DNA of 61,515 bases, counting the filler. It is 4 parts of 4 records of this genome, joined end to end, with 100 filler letters (N's around TTAATTAATTAA, not from the genome) between each part and the next. Parts side by side here need not be neighbours in the genome. Positions count along the whole stretch, not along the records: positions 1 to 28,744 come from DRR723986_8405; 3 more parts are not named here. One strand, 5' to 3'. Within the stretch, counting starts at the first letter, position 1, and each line of letters starts with the position of its first letter. The notes under the pieces were generated by a model that saw only the letters and a program-made list of their open reading frames with translations, was not told the DNA's origin and ran no database searches. Made by a program: the position numbers and the translations under genes. Below, piece by piece: positions 7,204 to 54,803 of the stretch.

Positions 7204-7316
7204 GCAGAACTCCTGAGTCAATCGACCCTTAGCATAGCAGCCGGAACCGCAATCGGCTTGGCTTGTCGCGGGGATTCTGGGATAGACTTACGCCCCTGCA
7301 GGCAGTGGAGCCGGAC

Positions 7317-7784
7317 ATGCTGGACGACATCCTGAATTACGTGCAATTAACTGGACGGGTGGCCACCTCCGGCCAGCCCACCGCGGATCAGTTTGCCGCT
7401 ATTGCTGGCGCCGGCAACCGCGCCGTTATCAATCTGGCCATGCCCGACTCCGACGGCGCACTCCCGAATGAAGGCAACCTGGTCACCCACTACGGCATGA
7501 GCTACGTCCACATTCCCGTTCCCTGGCAGGCGCCGACCGCGGATCACCTCAGCAACTTCATCGATGTCATGCGAGCTTTCAGGGACCGGCCAGTCTGGGT
7601 TCACTGCGCCATGAACCTGCGCGTCTCCGCTTTCATGTATCACTACCTGGCGAAAGTTGACCAACTGCCGGAGGACGATTGCCGATCGCCCATTTTCGCG
7701 GTGTGGGAGCCACAAATGGATACGGTGTGGCGCGAATTTCTTGTACTCGACAGCAGCGAGGTCAAGGCACTTGGGCGCAACTGA
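7317..7784 (+). CDS. Protein-tyrosine-phosphatase-fold protein (DUF442/Blh-like)
   Basis: TSGQP, VINL, YVHIPV and CX5R motif HCAMNLR. Confidence 0.75.
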   Translation: MLDDILNYVQLTGRVATSGQPTADQFAAIAGAGNRAVINLAMPDSDGALPNEGNLVTHYGMSYVHIPVPWQAPTADHLSNFIDVMRAFRDRPVWVHCAMNLRVSAFMYHYLAKVDQLPEDDCRSPIFAVWEPQMDTVWREFLVLDSSEVKALGRN

Positions 7785-7832: not shown

Positions 7833-8978
7833 ATGAGCACCATACACTGGCTTGGAGCGGGATTATCCAGCGGCCCCGGAATTCGCCGCCTTGCCGCCGG
7901 GGACAGCCCGCTGGTGCTGTGGAACCGCACGCCGGGCAATGCCCTCGCCCAATTGCAGGGCGCGGACTGTCAGGTGCCGGTAAGACCGCTGGAGCTCGAG
8001 CAGCTGGCACAGCAGGTGAGCGCCGGTGACATCCTGGTCTCCATGCTGCCCGCCGATTGGCATCCCCGCATTGCAGAACTGGCGCTGGCGCGACGCGCAC
8101 ACTTTGTATCGAGCTCCTATGTATCGGAGGCCATGCTCAGACTGGACGCGGATGCACAGGCATCGGGCATCTGCCTGGTCAACGAGGTGGGGCTGGACCC
8201 AGGCCTGGACCACCTGATGGCGCACCAGTTGCTGGATGCTTACCGCCAGAGCGAGTGCCCCAAGGACAGCCGCCTGAGTTTCCGATCCTATTGCGGTGGT
8301 TTCCCCGCGATCGCCAACCCCTTCCGCTATAAGTTCAGCTGGTCACCCGTGGGCGTGCTGCGGGCATTGCGAACGCCCGCACGCTGTATCAGGGACAGCG
8401 CGGTACTCGATGTCGCCCGGCCCTGGGAGGCAATTACCGACTACCAGCTGCCGACGCCTGAGGGGGAATCCTTTGAGGCCTACCCCAACCGGGACTCCCT
8501 CCCCTTCGTGGACGCCTACCATCTCGACCCGCAATGGCCGGTGGAAGAATTCGTACGCGGCACGCTCAGGTTACCCGGTTGGAGCGAGGCCTGGGGTGAG
8601 CTGTTCGACGAGATCGGCCAGCTGCAGGGCGAGACAGGTGAACAGCGCCTGCTGGACATCAGTGACGCCCTGTGGCGAGCACACGCCTACCAGCCGGGTG
8701 AGGCAGACCGGGTAGTGCTTTGCGTGGAGCTGGCCGCGAACCGCGCCGGCGACACCTTGTGGCACCAGGCCTACCTGCTCGATGTGACCGGCAATGCCGC
8801 CGGCTCGGCGATGGCGCGACTTGTATCCTGGCCGGTAAGCTTTGCTGTCGAGGCGATTCTCGCAGGGACTATCTCTCCGGGGGTCAGTGCCGCGCCCGCC
8901 GATTCCCGGCTGATCCAGACCTGGTTCGAGCAGCTGGCGGACAACGGCGACCTGGTAAGGCACCTGGTGCTCCGGTGA
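7833..8978 (+). CDS. Saccharopine dehydrogenase family protein (glutamate-forming type)
   Basis: NEVGLDPGLDH, SYCGG, YKFSWSP, AYPNRDS, RGTLR motifs. Confidence 0.88.
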   Translation: MSTIHWLGAGLSSGPGIRRLAAGDSPLVLWNRTPGNALAQLQGADCQVPVRPLELEQLAQQVSAGDILVSMLPADWHPRIAELALARRAHFVSSSYVSEAMLRLDADAQASGICLVNEVGLDPGLDHLMAHQLLDAYRQSECPKDSRLSFRSYCGGFPAIANPFRYKFSWSPVGVLRALRTPARCIRDSAVLDVARPWEAITDYQLPTPEGESFEAYPNRDSLPFVDAYHLDPQWPVEEFVRGTLRLPGWSEAWGELFDEIGQLQGETGEQRLLDISDALWRAHAYQPGEADRVVLCVELAANRAGDTLWHQAYLLDVTGNAAGSAMARLVSWPVSFAVEAILAGTISPGVSAAPADSRLIQTWFEQLADNGDLVRHLVLR

Positions 8979-9889
8979 GCTGCCGCGCACCCCACCTGCT
9001 GACGGCACTGCTGACCGTACTCCTGAGCTTGCTGCCGGCGCTACCTGGCAGCGCGATCAGCATTGACACCCAACCCGACTATGAGCGGCCGGGCGACCTG
9101 TCCCCGCGCCAGGACCAGGATCTGCGCGAGCAGTTGCTGAACGCGCTGTGCCTGCAGGGACTTTGCGAGCTGCTCGAGGCCGACAGGCTGGCCGTCGCAC
9201 TGGTGGTCTTTGATGATCGGGAGGCCCGTCTGGCACTGCTCAATGGCCACCTCATGATGTACGCGGCCAGCCTGCCAAAGCTGGCGATAGCGCTGGGCGC
9301 CATGGTGGCATCACAGCGCGGTGACCTGCGAATCGACCAGGCCATGGACCTCGACATCCGGGACATGATCCGGGTTTCCTGCAATATCTGCGCAACCCGG
9401 GTGCTCGAGAAGATTGGCCGGCAACAGTTACTCGCCATCCTGCGGGAACCCGAGTATGCATTCTACGACGCGACCCGCAGTGGCGGCCTCTGGGTTGGCA
9501 AGGACTATGCTGACGCCAAGGCATTCGCCCGTGACCCTATCCATGACCTGTCCCACGGCGCTACCGCCTACCAGGTAGCCCGTCTGTACTATCGTCTGGA
9601 TACCGGCGACCTGCTGGACAGCAAGCATACGGCCTTGATGCTGGATGCATTGGCAAACCCGGGGATAGATCACAAGTTCGTCGCCGGCCTGGGCGAGGTC
9701 GAGGGCCTGAAACTTTGGCGTAAATCGGGCACCTGGCGCAATTTTCACGCCGACAGCGCGCTGGTTTCCGATGCCGGGCACCGCTACATCATGGTTGGTC
9801 TGGTCGAAGACCCCGACGGAGAAAGCATCCTCCGCTCGCTGGCAAGAATCATGCGCGATATCGCTAACGGGAGTGATGCCGCGCCCTGA
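8975..9889 (+). CDS. Exported serine hydrolase, class A beta-lactamase-like fold
   Basis: GTG start overlapping the upstream stop; signal peptide; SxxK (AASLPK), SxN (VSCN), KSG (RKSGT). Confidence 0.8.
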   Translation: MSCRAPHLLTALLTVLLSLLPALPGSAISIDTQPDYERPGDLSPRQDQDLREQLLNALCLQGLCELLEADRLAVALVVFDDREARLALLNGHLMMYAASLPKLAIALGAMVASQRGDLRIDQAMDLDIRDMIRVSCNICATRVLEKIGRQQLLAILREPEYAFYDATRSGGLWVGKDYADAKAFARDPIHDLSHGATAYQVARLYYRLDTGDLLDSKHTALMLDALANPGIDHKFVAGLGEVEGLKLWRKSGTWRNFHADSALVSDAGHRYIMVGLVEDPDGESILRSLARIMRDIANGSDAAP

Positions 9890-11132
9890 TCATCTGATGG
9901 ATCTCCCCTGCCAGCGCCTGATGCGCTACCGCCGAATTCTCCCGCAATACATTGGACAGCAAGGCGACCGCATAATGCAGCCGCGGTTGCTCGGAATCAT
10001 CCTCGATGATTGCCAGCGAACCCATGTAGTTCCGAACGTTTCCGCGGTAAGGCCCGCAGCTGAACCCCTCCTCCGGCTCGCAGCCGTACAGTGATCCCGA
10101 CTTGAAATAGACCGCCGCCTCACGCAAGGCAGGTGCCGAGGCATAACGGATGCGGTTCTCGGTCACGTACAGCAGGCGCTTGATCTGCTGGCTGCTCCAG
10201 GAATCCACCAAGCGACCTTGCTCCAGGAACAGTGCCAGTTCAACCATACTGCGAGGAGTGGCATAGCTGTTGCCACCGCCGTCGACCAGGCGCTTGCCCT
10301 CGCGGGTAAAGAAGCTGCCCTGGCGAAGCGCATCCAGGGACAGGCCACTGCGGCGCAAAGGTTCCCAGAAAGCCTGCTGGAACAAGGCAGTAAGCGCCGC
10401 CCTGCCCGCCTGGTCAAAAAACAGAGAGATGCGGGCCTCCTCCAGCGGATAGCTCGCCCCGAACTGGCGCAGCAGCATGGCGTCGCGCATCACCATGGCG
10501 GCAGCCGAGTTAGAACTGGCGGACAGTGTCCAGTCGAGATACTCCCAGAGGTTACCCTCATCACCTTCGCGCATCGGTCGGCGGGAGAGCGCACCGGAGG
10601 CCGGATCAAATAAGCGAATTTTGTGGTGGTCTGTGACGCTGAAGCGGTCGGCCTTGACCCGCGTCTCACGCAGCAGATCAAGCCGCGCCTGCAGGTCATC
10701 AGGGTAGGCGTCGGCCAGTGCCTGAAAGAGCCCCACCGCGGCGACCAGCTTGCCCACGCTACCGACATTCTGGCGCTGGTCGGGCCGCAATGCGCCGTAA
10801 ACAACCGCATTCGGGTCTGAGAGATCAATCAGTGCGATCGCATAGCGTTCCGCCTGCTCGCCGAACAAGTCCTCAAGGGCAGCGGACAATACCGGGTCCG
10901 CTGGCGGAAGCTCAAAATCCAGGCCCAGCAATCGTGGCTTGATCTCACTGGCTGGACGCAAGGCCCCGGCGGGCTGCCGATCACCCGACAGTTCACCGCT
11001 TTCCACCCGACGGACATAGTCCAGCCGCCGTATACCGGTATCGTGATAGCCGTCGATGGGGTATGCCGCTACTTGCCAGGCCAGCGACGCGCATAACAGC
11101 CCGAGCGCCAGCTGCAGCAAGCAGCGGCTCAT
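9864..11132 (-). CDS. Exported serine hydrolase, divergent beta-lactamase/PBP-like fold
   Basis: Signal peptide (VAA/YP); SxxK (GSVGK), SxN (SSN), KSG (FKSGS); C-terminal Cys pair. Confidence 0.7.
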   Translation of the reverse strand: MSRCLLQLALGLLCASLAWQVAAYPIDGYHDTGIRRLDYVRRVESGELSGDRQPAGALRPASEIKPRLLGLDFELPPADPVLSAALEDLFGEQAERYAIALIDLSDPNAVVYGALRPDQRQNVGSVGKLVAAVGLFQALADAYPDDLQARLDLLRETRVKADRFSVTDHHKIRLFDPASGALSRRPMREGDEGNLWEYLDWTLSASSNSAAAMVMRDAMLLRQFGASYPLEEARISLFFDQAGRAALTALFQQAFWEPLRRSGLSLDALRQGSFFTREGKRLVDGGGNSYATPRSMVELALFLEQGRLVDSWSSQQIKRLLYVTENRIRYASAPALREAAVYFKSGSLYGCEPEEGFSCGPYRGNVRNYMGSLAIIEDDSEQPRLHYAVALLSNVLRENSAVAHQALAGEIHQMIRARHHSR

Positions 11133-14023
11133 CGCTGCGGGGTTTCCTTCAGGTCGACCCGGTCGGCCTCGACAGGTCGGGCACTGGCATCCATCGCGCG
11201 CAGTACCCCGCTGCCCCGGGTACTGCGATTCTCCAGAAACGGTCGCAGCTGGAACAGGCGCAGTTGGCCGTCGAGGAAACCAAACTCGACATCTGCCGGG
11301 GCCGGCTCACCCTGCTCATCCACGATCGGGCCGAAGCGCTGGGGCAGATTACGGGCAAATTCCGCCAGCAGGTGAATCTCCCCCGGCGTCATGATGGTAT
11401 CCGACCCGGATGCCGGCAACTTCAGAATGCCGCCCGCCGGGTCGGGTACCCTGCGCCAGGCAGCGGTGGCCGTGTCCAGCACGCGGACCGATTCCCCGTC
11501 GAGACTGATGCGCAGCGATTCTGCCGCCTGGCCGTCGACCGCCCCGCCCAGGCCCTCATTTACCGCCACCGACAGGATCCCAGTATCACCGCTGTCGATA
11601 TCGGCAGTCACCAGCACCCCGGACTTGTCCGACCCAACCGATTCCAGCAACAAGACCGAGGTGTATACGTGCTCCGGTGCGGTCATATGCGCCTGGCGCC
11701 AGGCAAAGGCCCTTGCAGTAAACGGGGACGCCCATACCCGGGGGATCGCATGGATCAGCTCTTCGAAACCCACCACATTGGGCAGGGTAAGATTCAGCCC
11801 GGCGCCGGTGAATCCGGCCAGGTCCTCAACATTGGTATCGGACCGAACGAAGACGCCGACACTGTCGGAACCGAAGTTCGCAATCATCGCCTTGCGCAGC
11901 TGCTCACGGAAACTGTCGGGCAGCGGGGTGTTGAGAATGGCGGTATAGAGTTCGGTACGAAAGGCCTCGGTGCGCTCCTCCCGCTGCGGACTGCCGGCGG
12001 GCAGCGCCGCAATGGCGCTGTATTGGCTGAGCATCCAGTCCCACAGCGTGTCACCACTGCGATGGCGCTGACCAAGGGCGGTCGAGCGAAACAGGCCGAA
12101 AGGAATGGCAAGACCGCGCGAGACCGCGGCCGGGTAGTGCTTGCGCAGCTCTGCGAGTTTTGCCGCCTTGGGCCCGACGCTGCGGCCCGAATCGCCGGCG
12201 GATAGCTCCGCGATAGGCAGCGGGCGCCGGACAGACAGGTCGAGCTTGTCGAGGTCCGGACGGATCACGATGCCACCCTGCAGGGCCTCACTGGCCTCTG
12301 CTGGACCGGTATCCGCTGTTATATGCACCAATCCGCCCGGACTAACCGCGAGCACGATACGTTCGCCGTCATGGCGCTCGAGCTGTTCGGCCACGTCTTG
12401 GCTGACGCTGACGTTGGGGATACCGAGGTTACGCGCCAGCAACTGCACGTGAGATAAGGGGTTGCCCGCGCCCCGGGTGATTATGCCCGCCACCGGTGGC
12501 AGATCCGAGACCGTTTCTGGCAACAGGTAAATGCCGTCCGCTCTGAATGCGCCGGGCGATTCCGGACGTCGCGCGTAGAGCACACCGCGGGCTATGCCGG
12601 GGTTCAGCGCGTTGAATCCGGAACCGCGGGTATTGTCGAACAGCTGGTGCTTGATGCCGGCCAGCCTGCCGGCGTCGCGGGCGAGGATTTCGATGAGCTG
12701 CGAATAAAAAAGCAGCGGACTGCCGCGCAGCTGGTCCTGGATAAACAGGGCAGCCCGCGGCTCCACCTCGGCGAGCTTCATCATCGACGGGTAAAAATAA
12801 CGGCGCATACCCTGGACGCCCCAACCGCCGGCCCGGCCAAGGTAGTCGAGGCCGGCACGATATGCCGCAAGCGCCGGGGACGACTGGTCCAGGGCGACGA
12901 GCTGCTGCTGCACCTCGGCATACAGACGAGCATTGATATGCCCTGTGCCATAAGCCGCCGCTGCCCCGGCGGCGAGCAACGCAAGGTGCTGTTGCCGGGA
13001 CCGGGATGGCAACTGCTCACGCAGTTCCGAAGCAGCGCGGTAATGCGCGTTTTCGAGTTGCAGACCCAGGTCGAGCAGGTCCAGGCGCAACTGGACGGAC
13101 TGGGCCTGCGCCAGATCACTTCGAATAGCAGCCAGCGCCCTGCCGCTGAGTTCCAGGCGCCGGGCTGCATCACCATTCGCCTCGAGCCAGCCATCCGCAA
13201 CCTGCCCCAGCTCAACGCGCAGCGCGTCCGGCAGCCCATCCCGGGCGAGGGTTTCTCGCAGCAGCGTCTCCAGCGGCCGCCCACCGTAGACCTGGTCTAT
13301 CTCTGACGCCAGTTGCGCATAACGCTGCTGTAACTCGCCATCCGCTACACCGGCTGCGTAGCCGCGCACGCGATCGGCGTCCCCTGCGTCGGGGGCGCCA
13401 TGGATCTTCGCCCTGATTGGCATGAACGGCGGATCATCTTCCGACAATGCCGCCGACCACTGGCGTACCTTAGAGATCGAGGCGCTGTCCTCGCCATGCG
13501 GCAGCAGCTTCACCCCAGTGCGTAAAGCGACGAAGCGCGGCCCCAGCCAGTCGGGGTCGGCAGCAAGCGCCAGCAGCAGCCTCTCCGCTCCGGCGCGCTC
13601 GTCCTCGTCCTGGATCGCACCGCGATAGAAAACCGCCTTGCGGAAAATCCAGCCCTCATCCACCGCCGTCAGGTAGCGTTCGATCAGCAACTGGGCGTAG
13701 TGGTCCTCGGCATCCGCTGCCTGCAGAAAATGCTGCGGCTCGATGCCGGCCAGTAAATTGGCGACCAGGTAGCCGTGTTCGCGCAACTTGACGGTACGAC
13801 TGTTCCACTCGCCATGCTGTACGCCACCGCCGTGTTCCCGGCAGGCATAGGGCTGCGGAGGAAGCACCTTCCCGTCATTGCAGAACCAGCGGATTCTGGA
13901 AAAGGGCCCCCGCGGTTCATCGCGCATCTGCTTGATCCAGCCGGCATAGTCATCCGCTGCGGACAGCGGAACTGAGAGCGGCAGCAAGGCCAGCAGCAGC
14001 AAGGGACTCAGAAATTTGCGCAT
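11129..14023 (-). CDS. PEP-utilising/dikinase family protein with signal peptide; phospho-His domain followed by ATP-grasp (PPDK_N) domain
   Basis: MRKFLSPLLLLALLPLSVPLSA signal; His domain GAGNPLSHVQLLARNLGIP; ATP-grasp motifs VGPKAAKLAEL, VRSDTNVEDLAGFTGAG, VWASPF, DVEFGF..FQLRPF; no pyruvate-binding barrel. Confidence 0.85.
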   Translation of the reverse strand: MRKFLSPLLLLALLPLSVPLSAADDYAGWIKQMRDEPRGPFSRIRWFCNDGKVLPPQPYACREHGGGVQHGEWNSRTVKLREHGYLVANLLAGIEPQHFLQAADAEDHYAQLLIERYLTAVDEGWIFRKAVFYRGAIQDEDERAGAERLLLALAADPDWLGPRFVALRTGVKLLPHGEDSASISKVRQWSAALSEDDPPFMPIRAKIHGAPDAGDADRVRGYAAGVADGELQQRYAQLASEIDQVYGGRPLETLLRETLARDGLPDALRVELGQVADGWLEANGDAARRLELSGRALAAIRSDLAQAQSVQLRLDLLDLGLQLENAHYRAASELREQLPSRSRQQHLALLAAGAAAAYGTGHINARLYAEVQQQLVALDQSSPALAAYRAGLDYLGRAGGWGVQGMRRYFYPSMMKLAEVEPRAALFIQDQLRGSPLLFYSQLIEILARDAGRLAGIKHQLFDNTRGSGFNALNPGIARGVLYARRPESPGAFRADGIYLLPETVSDLPPVAGIITRGAGNPLSHVQLLARNLGIPNVSVSQDVAEQLERHDGERIVLAVSPGGLVHITADTGPAEASEALQGGIVIRPDLDKLDLSVRRPLPIAELSAGDSGRSVGPKAAKLAELRKHYPAAVSRGLAIPFGLFRSTALGQRHRSGDTLWDWMLSQYSAIAALPAGSPQREERTEAFRTELYTAILNTPLPDSFREQLRKAMIANFGSDSVGVFVRSDTNVEDLAGFTGAGLNLTLPNVVGFEELIHAIPRVWASPFTARAFAWRQAHMTAPEHVYTSVLLLESVGSDKSGVLVTADIDSGDTGILSVAVNEGLGGAVDGQAAESLRISLDGESVRVLDTATAAWRRVPDPAGGILKLPASGSDTIMTPGEIHLLAEFARNLPQRFGPIVDEQGEPAPADVEFGFLDGQLRLFQLRPFLENRSTRGSGVLRAMDASARPVEADRVDLKETPQR

Positions 14024-14081: not shown

Positions 14082-14480
14082 TCAGCGTACCGCCATGGAC
14101 AGGTCGAATCCCAGGGCCAGTGCCCTGTTAATGGCAGCATCCCGCTCATGCTCCTCACGGCTGCTCACCCAGAGATTGGTGCAACGCGTTCCGGTGCGGC
14201 AAAACGCGAGCACAGGCCGCGACGGATCGTCGAACAATGACCTCAGCAGGGACAGGTCCGCCCCGGGATAATTCACTGCATTTACAGGCAGGTAGTGGTA
14301 CGCCATCCCGGCGGCCTCAGCCGCCGCCGCGATATCGCTGTGTGAAGGCTGACCGGGCACTTCGCCATCGGGTCGGTTGTTGACCAGCACCCGATAGCCC
14401 GCCGCGGCGATATGCTCTACGTCACTCGGGTCAATCTGGCCGCTGACTGCCAGGTGCTCTTCAAGATTAATCAGGTTCAT
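14082..14480 (-). CDS. TIGR01244/DUF442 family sulfurtransferase or phosphatase-fold protein
   Basis: VSGQI, NNRPDGE, CX5R motif FCRTGTR. Confidence 0.85.
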   Translation of the reverse strand: MNLINLEEHLAVSGQIDPSDVEHIAAAGYRVLVNNRPDGEVPGQPSHSDIAAAAEAAGMAYHYLPVNAVNYPGADLSLLRSLFDDPSRPVLAFCRTGTRCTNLWVSSREEHERDAAINRALALGFDLSMAVR

Positions 14481-28744: not shown

Positions 28745-28844
28745 NNNNNNNNNNNNNNNNNNNNNNNNNNNNNNNNNNNNNNNNNNNNTTAATTAATTAA
28801 NNNNNNNNNNNNNNNNNNNNNNNNNNNNNNNNNNNNNNNNNNNN
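28745..28844. other. Artificial contig spacer
   Basis: N-run with TTAATTAATTAA at 28789-28800. Confidence 0.99.
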
Positions 28845-39417: not shown

Positions 39418-39517
39418 NNNNNNNNNNNNNNNNNNNNNNNNNNNNNNNNNNNNNNNNNNNNTTAATTAATTAANNNNNNNNNNNNNNNNNNNNNNNNNNN
39501 NNNNNNNNNNNNNNNNN
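39418..39517. other. Artificial contig spacer
   Basis: N-run with TTAATTAATTAA at 39462-39473. Confidence 0.99.
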
Positions 39518-54703: not shown

Positions 54704-54803
54704 NNNNNNNNNNNNNNNNNNNNNNNNNNNNNNNNNNNNNNNNNNNNTTAATTAATTAANNNNNNNNNNNNNNNNNNNNNNNNNNNNNNNNNNNNNNNNN
54801 NNN
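54704..54803. other. Artificial contig spacer
   Basis: N-run with TTAATTAATTAA at 54748-54759. Confidence 0.99.

Follow-up and report, generated by a model that had tools for sequence, protein, structure and literature searches.

The dikinase gene (DK) and the two serine hydrolase genes (H1 and H2) at this locus form a real and conserved module, a conclusion which we regard as practically certain. The window, i.e. the whole stretch of DNA that was analysed, is 61,515 nucleotides long, and the following features were assigned in it.

11129-14023, minus strand: DK, 964 aa, with a predicted signal peptide, a putative helical acceptor domain, a His swivel domain and an ATP-grasp domain
13955-14023, minus strand: predicted signal peptide of DK, about residues 1-23 (hydrophobic leader, heuristic)
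12644-13954, minus strand: mostly helical N-terminal domain of DK, residues 24-460, putatively acceptor-binding
12449-12451, minus strand: His525 of DK, the predicted phospho-accepting His of the swivel domain, aligning with the PEP synthase His motif
11216-12235, minus strand: ATP-grasp domain of DK, residues 597-936, with K619, R727, D911, E913, Q925 and R927
11129-11132, minus strand: ATGA overlap of the DK stop and the H2 start, read from the sequence; the junction is conserved
9864-11132, minus strand: H2, 422 aa, with SxxK/SxN/KSG retained and a PBP-A/class A fold that carries insertions
9864-9889, no strand assigned: 26 nt shared by the converging H1 and H2 genes at their 3' ends, read from the sequence
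8975-9889, plus strand: H1, 304 aa, paralogue of H2; SxxK/SxN/KSG intact
8975-8978, plus strand: GTGA overlap of the H1 start and the saccharopine dehydrogenase stop, read from the sequence
7833-8978: saccharopine dehydrogenase gene upstream of H1, local context

No published description of the module was found in a literature search with most subscription journals and supplements outside its coverage. The first-pass annotation of the window had likewise known of no characterised system with this composition; its gene coordinates, the ATGA overlap and the 26-nt overlap were all borne out by the sequence. The DK reading frame ends in ATGA at 81 of the 119 related loci scored and in GTGA at 16. 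H1 starts with a GTG codon, which overlaps the TGA of the saccharopine dehydrogenase gene. This neighbour was present in three close relatives only and is therefore local context outside the module; since H1 is coupled to it through GTGA, the module consists of two convergent transcription units, not a single operon. H2 and H1 are convergent at 42 of the 76 loci whose sequence continues for 3 kb or more downstream of DK. Promoter and terminator scans at the locus gave signals at chance level only.

Conservation of the three genes was analysed in a family sample of 151 genomes and a phylum sample of 401 genomes. In the family sample, DK was found in 22 genomes, H2 in 20 and H1 in 20; both hydrolases accompanied DK in 20/22 genomes, and every hydrolase-positive genome was DK-positive. 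In the phylum sample, DK was found in 28 genomes, together with H2 in 27/28 and H1 in 26/28, counts that are not independent because one clade holds 22 of the 28 positives. Neither sample contained strong hydrolase matches in genomes without DK. Where at least 600 nt lay downstream of DK, the next gene was H2 (99 loci) or H1 (9 loci) at 108/112 loci. The metagenome loci (n=80) were the 80 best out of 545, with some redundancy among them. The linkage is maintained under several gene orders, and is found on either side of the deepest division in the DK tree (loci L053 and L054).

In the phylum sample, a single genome (G490) has DK but neither hydrolase; its DK has lost His525, K619, R727, D911, E913 and R927, and no TLC-family carrier gene was matched in it. 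In another genome (G083), DK is a stop-interrupted remnant with the same upstream genes as in the window, and H1 and H2 were not found. These indicate that the loss of DK function and of the hydrolases goes together. An intact DK without a detected hydrolase was seen in genome G081 and at locus L107, and H1 was not found in genome G241. A chance neighbourhood of unrelated genes might be read from the window itself, where H1 faces DK/H2 and its start is coupled to the stop of a gene unrelated to them; however, the near-complete co-occurrence, the adjacency under several gene orders and the joint loss make this hardly conceivable, and it is refuted within Pseudomonadota. The three-gene unit proposed in the first-pass annotation was thus confirmed by co-occurrence, adjacency and conserved layout. 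An absence of hydrolase enrichment near DK homologues across phyla, which it had named as grounds for rejection, was contradicted within Pseudomonadota and at one Desulfobacterales-labelled locus.

By its domains and residues, DK is predicted to be a His-swivel dikinase of the PEP synthase/PPDK type, with turnover predicted likewise. PF00391 was matched at residues 500-556 (24.2 bits, cut-off 23.1) and PF01326 at residues 615-933 (94.8 bits, cut-off 27), and the AlphaFold2 model has a pLDDT of 93. His525 is a His in 104 of 106 aligned homologues; K619, R727, D911, E913, Q925 and R927 are kept in 104-105 of the 106. DK thus combines an ATP-grasp domain bearing the conserved K, R, D/E and QxR residues with a mobile His domain. 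The best structural match of the ATP-grasp domain was the rifampin phosphotransferase (RPH) 5hv1 (Z 31.9, rmsd 2.5, 311 aligned residues). RPH, PEP synthase, PigC/RedH and HpeI are cytoplasmic enzymes, which share this ATP-grasp fold (Z 26-32) and the His-swivel motif with DK. In these enzymes the ATP-grasp domain is N-terminal (chain ranges start at 1-4), whereas in DK it is C-terminal; moreover, DK scored far below the family cut-offs of RPH, PEP synthase and PigC (TIGR01418, 74 versus 740 bits; NF041857, 73 versus 999 bits; NF052631, 53 versus 1300 bits). A search for DK-H2 fusions gave six longer proteins, three of them with both domains. In P0273, P0275 and P0276 the linker is out-of-frame text, which marks them as frameshift artefacts; P0272 and P0274 are artefacts of read-through into antisense sequence, and all the longer proteins were discarded.

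The N-terminal domain has conserved residues (C48, C61, W46, W125, R134, R187, H208 and R433), and no family in Pfam covers it. The PDB-sequence profile search returned nothing for this domain; fold searches with the whole DK model matched it to generic four-helix bundles only (Z up to 11.4), and no entry for a glucan, water dikinase (GWD) was among the matches listed. An Atlas search with residues 24-460 returned clusters below 0.9 only, and the clusters of GWD and phosphoglucan, water dikinase (PWD) that stood at ranks 12 and 14 of 30 Atlas matches (scores 0.90 and 0.89) are a lead only. The plant enzyme StGWD1 has a 444-residue central domain of 20 helices, followed by the His domain and then the ATP domain (PMC13553574); the DK model has the same order, with an N-terminal domain of about 437 residues and about 21 helices. 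GWD1/PWD and DK are thus alike in the order of helical domain (about 440 residues), His domain and ATP-grasp domain, in the predicted transfer of a beta-phosphate via a swivelling His, and in an acid/Arg pair at similar spacing before this His (D430/R433 and His525 in DK; E900/R904 and His992 in GWD). DK also has K206-H208-D215, which fits K-[IL]-H-x6-D, presumably a GWD motif. A relationship between the helical domain of DK and the central domain of GWD (PDB 9HA9) is a possibility. Unlike GWD/PWD, DK is bacterial, is partnered with serine hydrolases, and features both a predicted signal peptide and an N-terminal subdomain of disulfide type. It also differs in its lack of CBM45/CBM20, for which Pfam gave no match and 964 aa leave no room, and in falling below the PF22973 (GWD1_pHisD) cut-off (no match for the DK of the window; best of 46 homologues 18.7 versus 27 bits). 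Among 181 genomes, no bacterial GWD-like gene scored above the cut-off.

The two hydrolases are supported as PBP-A-like proteins rather than class A beta-lactamases, with their activity predicted from motifs and fold. The motifs are S99-x-x-K102, S135-x-N137 and K250-S-G in H1, and S125-x-x-K128, S206-x-N208 and K344-S-G in H2; as had been noted before, SxxK/SxN/KSG is intact in both, and the catalytic S, K and N are invariant among the homologues (81/81 for H1, 96/96 for H2). The H2 model (pLDDT 94) had PBP-A (2j7v) as its top Foldseek match (E 7e-10), with a structural Z of 24.3 tied with class A-like chains. H1 matched PF13354 (E 7e-14), and PBP-A was the sole significant match of its profile against the PDB (E 3e-5). 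HHalign paired H1 and H2 at 98.6%, which makes them paralogues. Against the NCBIfam bla_class_A model, H1 scored 12.5 versus a cut-off of 200 bits, and H2 had no match. The predicted omega-loop segment contains no invariant Glu in the homologues of H1 or H2; the class A Glu position, in the numbering that we take to apply, would be F275 in H2 and Y178 in H1. This call is weaker for H1, which is without a folded model and has E (44) or D (26) at position 177 in 70 of 81 homologues. Both proteins thus have the class A fold type with SxxK, SxN and KxG, and are without the invariant deacylating Glu, as in PBP-A-type enzymes. The preference of the first-pass annotation for PBP-A-type enzymes over true beta-lactamases therefore held, PBP-A being the best match of both.

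PBP-A (Tll2115 of Thermosynechococcus elongatus, PDB 2J7V) is the nearest solved relative of both hydrolases, with which it shares the class A-like fold, SxxK/SxN/KxG and the absence of the catalytic omega-loop Glu. We know of no kinase partner of PBP-A. Its identity with H2 is about 13% in the structural alignment; H2 is set apart by large insertions and by a pair of conserved Cys, and H1 and H2 alike by many conserved Arg, Lys and His residues. PBP-A has been described from cyanobacteria only. It is a DD-peptidase acting on muropeptides (PMC11189452).

The first-pass annotation had also offered antibiotic detoxification. DK might be an exported counterpart of rifampin phosphotransferase, and the hydrolases slow enzymes that trap or hydrolyse beta-lactams; the ATP-grasp match to RPH, the class A fold of H2 and the patchy spread (22/151 genomes in one family) fit this. 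However, the RPH and class A scores are far below their cut-offs, the domain order differs and no rifampin-binding domain was matched. Moreover, 72,556 plasmids gave no match, viral contigs gave no full-length DK (one contig matched the ATP-grasp part alone), and the module is retained across a 22-genome clade. Detoxification is accordingly disfavoured, and we consider it very doubtful.

All three proteins are predicted to be exported. Signal peptides were judged by whether the mean hydropathy over 9 residues of the leader reached 2.0 or more, a heuristic and not SignalP; such leaders were found in 104/104 DK, 86/91 H2 and 69/78 H1 homologues, and the same threshold was passed by 8%, 14% and 17% of internal windows, respectively. 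The signal peptides noted earlier on all three proteins thus agree with predicted leaders that are enriched in the homologues. The Cys pairs C48/C61 of DK (106/106) and C351/C359 of H2 (96/96) are invariant, which fits an oxidising compartment. The periplasm is generally regarded as being without ATP.

A recurrent neighbour addresses the puzzle of the ATP source for an exported DK. A gene of the TLC/NTT ATP/ADP-carrier family was found at 40/122 DK loci, and at 28/66 of those with at least 10 kb. The background expectation is about 0.4% per 10 kb (221 matches in 151 genomes, by our own arithmetic), so the enrichment is far above chance. A quick tree placed the linked genes in five or more separate groups, which suggests that several TLC clades were recruited separately to DK loci. 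One TLC clade occurs in 13/151 genomes, 12 of which are DK-positive; in 8 of these 12 the locus is unlinked, and the same unlinked locus is also present, with another TLC paralogue, in a DK-negative genome. The three-gene set of the first-pass annotation is therefore real, but this frequent fourth gene and the GWD-type domain order had been missed.

PF03219 was matched above the cut-off by 2/2 and 10/14 linked carriers, the remaining 4/14 having no Pfam match and being assigned by similarity only. TLC-HEAT fusions are among the carriers that matched. In this Pfam match most of the linked carriers resemble the NTT/TLC family (PF03219, TIGR00769); they differ from canonical NTTs in their free-living hosts, in the putative cargo and export direction, and in scores far below the TIGR00769 cut-off (65 and 38 versus 387 bits). 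TLC carriers also adjoin a phosphoesterase that is exported and bears a HipA_2 kinase domain. Another exported protein adjoining TLC genes, of 478 aa, shows kinase-like D-R-x-x-N and N-D-N-D motifs by eye; Pfam and PDB searches gave no support for a kinase. The characterised NTTs import nucleotides, whereas outlying members carry NAD or purines or showed no transport; the same source leaves open what NTT carriers do in free-living bacteria (PMC5381601).

The TLC linkage might be incidental to a real module, with DK using another phosphoryl or nucleotide source, e.g. released environmental ATP. At 82/122 loci no TLC gene was seen in the DNA examined, the contig of the window has none, and TLC-like genes are common without DK (114/151 family genomes). 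Given the enrichment, the apparently separate recruitment of several clades and the presence of a TLC gene elsewhere in 5/5 tested DK genomes without an adjacent one, we give this a low probability. The import activity of characterised NTTs (PMC5381601) would also fit a reverse scavenging route, in which DK makes ATP by moving phosphate from an external high-energy phospho-compound to AMP, the TLC carrier imports it, and H1/H2 free the substrate from a larger molecule. An acid phosphatase (16 loci) and an SDF-SBP uptake system (22 loci) recur beside the module, and PEP synthases are reversible. However, this route would need AMP and Pi in the periplasm as well as a phosphate donor as energetic as PEP, and the HipA_2 kinase domain found beside TLC carriers is of an ATP-consuming class; scavenging is quite unlikely.

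The mechanism favoured here builds on what was directly observed: the genes are linked, their catalytic residues are intact, the folds and the order of domains are as described above, and TLC genes recur nearby. ATP would be delivered to the periplasm, probably by the TLC/NTT-family carrier acting outwards. By established dikinase chemistry, the ATP-grasp domain would load the beta-phosphate onto His525 with release of AMP and Pi, and the His domain would swivel to the N-terminal domain. The exported DK would then pass the phosphate to a hydroxyl group of an envelope substrate, for which peptidoglycan or another glycan is the most likely candidate; H1 and H2 would likely cut or transfer acyl or peptide groups on the same substrate. 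Extracytoplasmic ATP-dependent phosphotransfer is probable; a hydroxyl or glycan as acceptor is credible at slightly less than even chances, and peptidoglycan specifically is a tentative choice. The recurrent neighbours (SDF-SBP transporter, acid phosphatase, and gamma-glutamyltransferase at 8 loci) include nothing that connects the module with cell-wall genes. The whole reading, from ATP delivery to hydrolase action, falls a little short of an even chance.

A periplasmic amide or ester ligase would use the same parts differently: DK would make an acyl phosphate, and the serine of H2/H1 would capture the acyl group and pass it to an amine, for example in re-activating trimmed stem peptides for cross-linking. 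The translational coupling of DK to H2, the acyl-serine machinery, which is intact but has no invariant Glu for deacylation, and the glutamate-type neighbours (SDF-SBP and gamma-glutamyltransferase) are consistent with this, as are the prodigiosin ligases PigC and RedH, which are of dikinase type with the same ATP-grasp domain. However, the acceptors known to us for characterised enzymes of this class are hydroxyl, phenol, enol or carbonyl oxygens (among them those of glucan C6/C3, rifampin and polyphenols), and we know of no carboxylate acceptor; acyl phosphates are labile, and the apparent DK-H2 fusions are frameshift artefacts. We consider the ligase unlikely. Of the coupling between phosphoryl activation and acyl-serine chemistry put forward in the first-pass annotation, the single module stands, but activation of a substrate by DK for the acyl-serine enzymes is one alternative and not an established function.

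Phosphorylation of an envelope glycan by DK, if true, would mean that ATP drives a modification of the wall in a compartment taken to be free of ATP, and that the starch-phosphorylating enzymes of plants have a relative in bacteria. That free-living bacteria export ATP through NTT carriers for a periplasmic GWD-like DK, with the PBP-fold pair reading or editing the glycan mark, is a more speculative proposal and rather unlikely in full. With its residues intact, an exported DK offers phospho-His and AMP as specific read-outs by which extracytoplasmic use of ATP could be followed. From the module, the His-swivel phosphotransferases gain a new putative acceptor domain, perhaps a relative of the central domain of GWD, and the PBP-fold enzymes gain two new families that have a defined partner. 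It occurs in many marine and sediment bacteria; after clustering at 50%, 608 representatives matched the N-terminal domain of DK, and the labels of members include Pseudomonadota, Acidobacteriota, Gemmatimonadota and Desulfobacterales.

The three genes of the module were read from the sequence as follows:

11129-14023, minus strand, predicted exported dikinase (DK, 964 aa)
9864-11132, minus strand, hydrolase 2 (H2, 422 aa)
8975-9889, plus strand, hydrolase 1 (H1, 304 aa)

These positions in the first-pass annotation were all reproduced, together with the ATGA overlap of DK and H2 and the 26-nt convergent overlap of H2 and H1. H1 starts with a GTG that overlaps the stop codon of a saccharopine dehydrogenase gene, and thus the module consists of two convergent units. 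It is located on the first contig of the window (1-28744). The nearest DK relatives belong to Halieaceae according to the source labels (Haliea, Halioglobus). Related strains are present in marine plankton runs from one study, and 27 of the 35 within-gene strain differences listed are synonymous. Small phosphatase/sulfur-transferase-like genes (BLH_phosphatase, TIGR01244) flank the module at 7263-7784 and 14082-14480; the upstream one is common only to close relatives (6 loci).

The three enzymes have intact residues and tight linkage, with joint loss and recurring transporter neighbours. DK was found in 22 of the 151 genomes of the family sample, H2 in 20 (three short weak matches excluded) and H1 in the same 20. 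The phylum sample of 401 Pseudomonadota genomes gave 28 with DK, 27 with H2 and 26 with H1, after three weak hydrolase matches were dropped. No strong hydrolase match was found in the DK-negative genomes of either sample. A single clade holds 22 of the 28 phylum-sample positives, and therefore Fisher values for this co-occurrence overstate independence. Mapping covered 122 loci: 80 were the best of 545 metagenome matches, and the others came from 15 of the 22 family-sample genomes with DK and from the 27 further DK-positive genomes of the phylum sample. The next gene after DK was H2 or H1 in 108 of the 112 loci with enough flank. Both hydrolases were present in 63 of the 76 loci with 3 kb downstream of DK, and 42 of these 76 had the convergent layout; further gene orders were also seen, with two H1 copies at several loci. 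Co-occurrence in both samples and this adjacency support the three-gene system proposed earlier; the finding holds and goes beyond the original account.

The exceptions include G083, which has a 5' DK remnant broken by a stop (L064, G083:C19:13384-13743) beside upstream genes that it shares with the window. H1 and H2 were not found in this genome, which has apparently lost the entire module. Genome G490 encodes a catalytically dead DK, and no H1, H2 or transporter of the ATP/ADP-carrier family (TLC/NTT) was found in it. Intact DK with no hydrolase found in G081 and at locus L107 argues against strict dependence.

The signal peptides assigned earlier to all three proteins were recovered as predicted hydrophobic leaders in most homologues. 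By a heuristic hydropathy criterion, a leader precedes the mature domain in 104/104 DK, 86/91 H2 and 69/78 H1 homologues; the same criterion gave a background of 8-17% in internal windows. DK and H2 also have invariant Cys pairs, which would fit a periplasmic location.

Pfam analysis of DK showed a PEP-utilisers mobile domain (500-556) followed by a PPDK_N domain (615-933), and every score against the NCBIfam dikinase-type models was far under cut-off. In the AlphaFold2 model (pLDDT 93), the N-terminal domain is mostly helical and spans about 437 residues; it is followed by the His domain and then by the ATP-grasp domain, for which the best structural match is rifampin phosphotransferase (Z 31.9, rmsd 2.5, 311 aligned). 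His525 and the nucleotide-site residues are retained in 104-105 of 106 DK homologues, at identities down to about 31%. This order, in which the ATP domain comes last, is shared by the plant glucan, water dikinase GWD1, which is described as having a 444-residue, 20-helix central domain ahead of the His and ATP domains (PMC13553574). The proposed catalytic helpers of GWD1, E900 and R904 (PMC13553574), have a spacing to the His comparable with D430 and R433 of DK, which are conserved in 87/106 and 99/106 homologues. Clusters of GWD and phosphoglucan, water dikinases ranked 12 and 14 among 30 Atlas matches. Homology between the helical domain and the GWD central domain is a lead, not a result. 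The DK homologue of G490 (L052:3957-6872; P0203) has the N-terminal Cys pair and lacks His525 and the ATP-site residues; it is a candidate exported pseudo-enzyme.

H1 is a distant paralogue of H2 (HHalign 98.6%). PBP-A, a DD-peptidase (PMC11189452), was the sole significant PDB match of the H1 profile and the top Foldseek match of the H2 model; VIA-align placed PBP-A level with class A-like chains for the H2 model. The SxxK, SxN and KSG catalytic residues are invariant across the homologues of both. No invariant Glu was found in the omega-loop segment of the alignments, and this Glu is described as the key feature distinguishing class A enzymes from PBP-A (PMC11189452). The PBP-A-like assignment of the first-pass annotation thus holds. 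Conserved Arg, Lys and His residues are numerous in both families and would fit a substrate that is anionic or phosphorylated.

Neighbour clustering revealed a fourth gene, the TLC/NTT carrier, in 40 of the 122 loci; its strand varies, as does its place (upstream, downstream, or between the hydrolase genes). A quick tree of 36 DK-linked and 29 hand-picked background carriers placed the linked ones in at least five groups, and its well-supported branches require at least three changes; this argues for repeated recruitment. The linked carriers score far under the TIGR00769 cut-off, and such carriers are described as part of the NTT family without characterised members (PMC5381601). The window itself has no TLC gene. 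In G028, the closest relative, a carrier of the DK-associated clade lies about 1 Mb from DK, next to genes for an SDF-SBP transporter and for an exported phosphoesterase that contains a HipA_2 kinase domain. A carrier was found elsewhere in 5/5 tested DK genomes without an adjacent one; TLC-like carriers are also common without DK (114/151 family genomes).

Regarding the mechanism, dikinase chemistry would give phospho-His525, AMP and Pi from ATP, and the phospho-His domain would then swing over to the N-terminal domain. Phosphotransfer would probably be periplasmic, the TLC carrier would exchange ATP outward, and a recurrent acid phosphatase (16 loci) could remove AMP. Reverse ATP scavenging by DK and the carrier has lower odds. 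The favoured acceptor would be a hydroxyl of an envelope glycan, given the GWD-like architecture and the oxygen nucleophiles that the characterised relatives phosphorylate; formation of an acyl phosphate for ligation, and detoxification, are also given lower odds. Among glycans, peptidoglycan would be favoured since H1 and H2 are both PBP-A-like. The folds of the three enzymes are already known. The literature search, within limited library coverage, found no described exported dikinase or system of like composition, in agreement with the earlier claim.

Some DK homologues are labelled Acidobacteriota or Gemmatimonadota, and in one Atlas cluster most members are Bacteroidota. The proposed enrichment of hydrolases beside DK across phyla was found within Pseudomonadota and at L144 (cluster label Desulfobacterales; order DK, H2, TLC), the one labelled neighbourhood read outside that phylum.

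Several other neighbours were observed. TLC-HEAT fusions of about 720 aa lie directly within the module (L076, L089-L091, L098, L099, L103, L132), and at some of these a single-domain TLC stands in tandem with the fusion. A Halieaceae locus (L148-L156, L159-L161; e.g. L152:961-8334), conserved with or without the dikinase, encodes an SDF-SBP_bac_3 fusion, an exported Metallophos/HipA_2-kinase fusion and two TLC carriers in convergent orientation, one with a fused Ig domain. An exported 478-aa protein of no Pfam family, with a kinase-like D-R-x-x-N / N-D-N-D motif, adjoins a metallophosphoesterase and a TLC carrier (L108:1584-3020, L068:1686-3149, L162:2387-3823); at L107 its gene precedes the DK that has no hydrolase neighbour. 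A predicted exported 240-aa protein of no Pfam family, with Gly/Met/Pro-rich repeats, is encoded upstream of DK at 8 loci (L089, L090, L091, L098, L099, L104, L121, L122). N runs at 28745-28844, 39418-39517 and 54704-54803 separate the contigs of the window. GC, about 0.62 before them, is 0.54-0.58 afterwards, and gene content also differs, so that the contigs of the window may form a bin of more than one origin. A V/A-type ATPase gene set, identified by eye from translations, is located on a separate contig (44383-51754).
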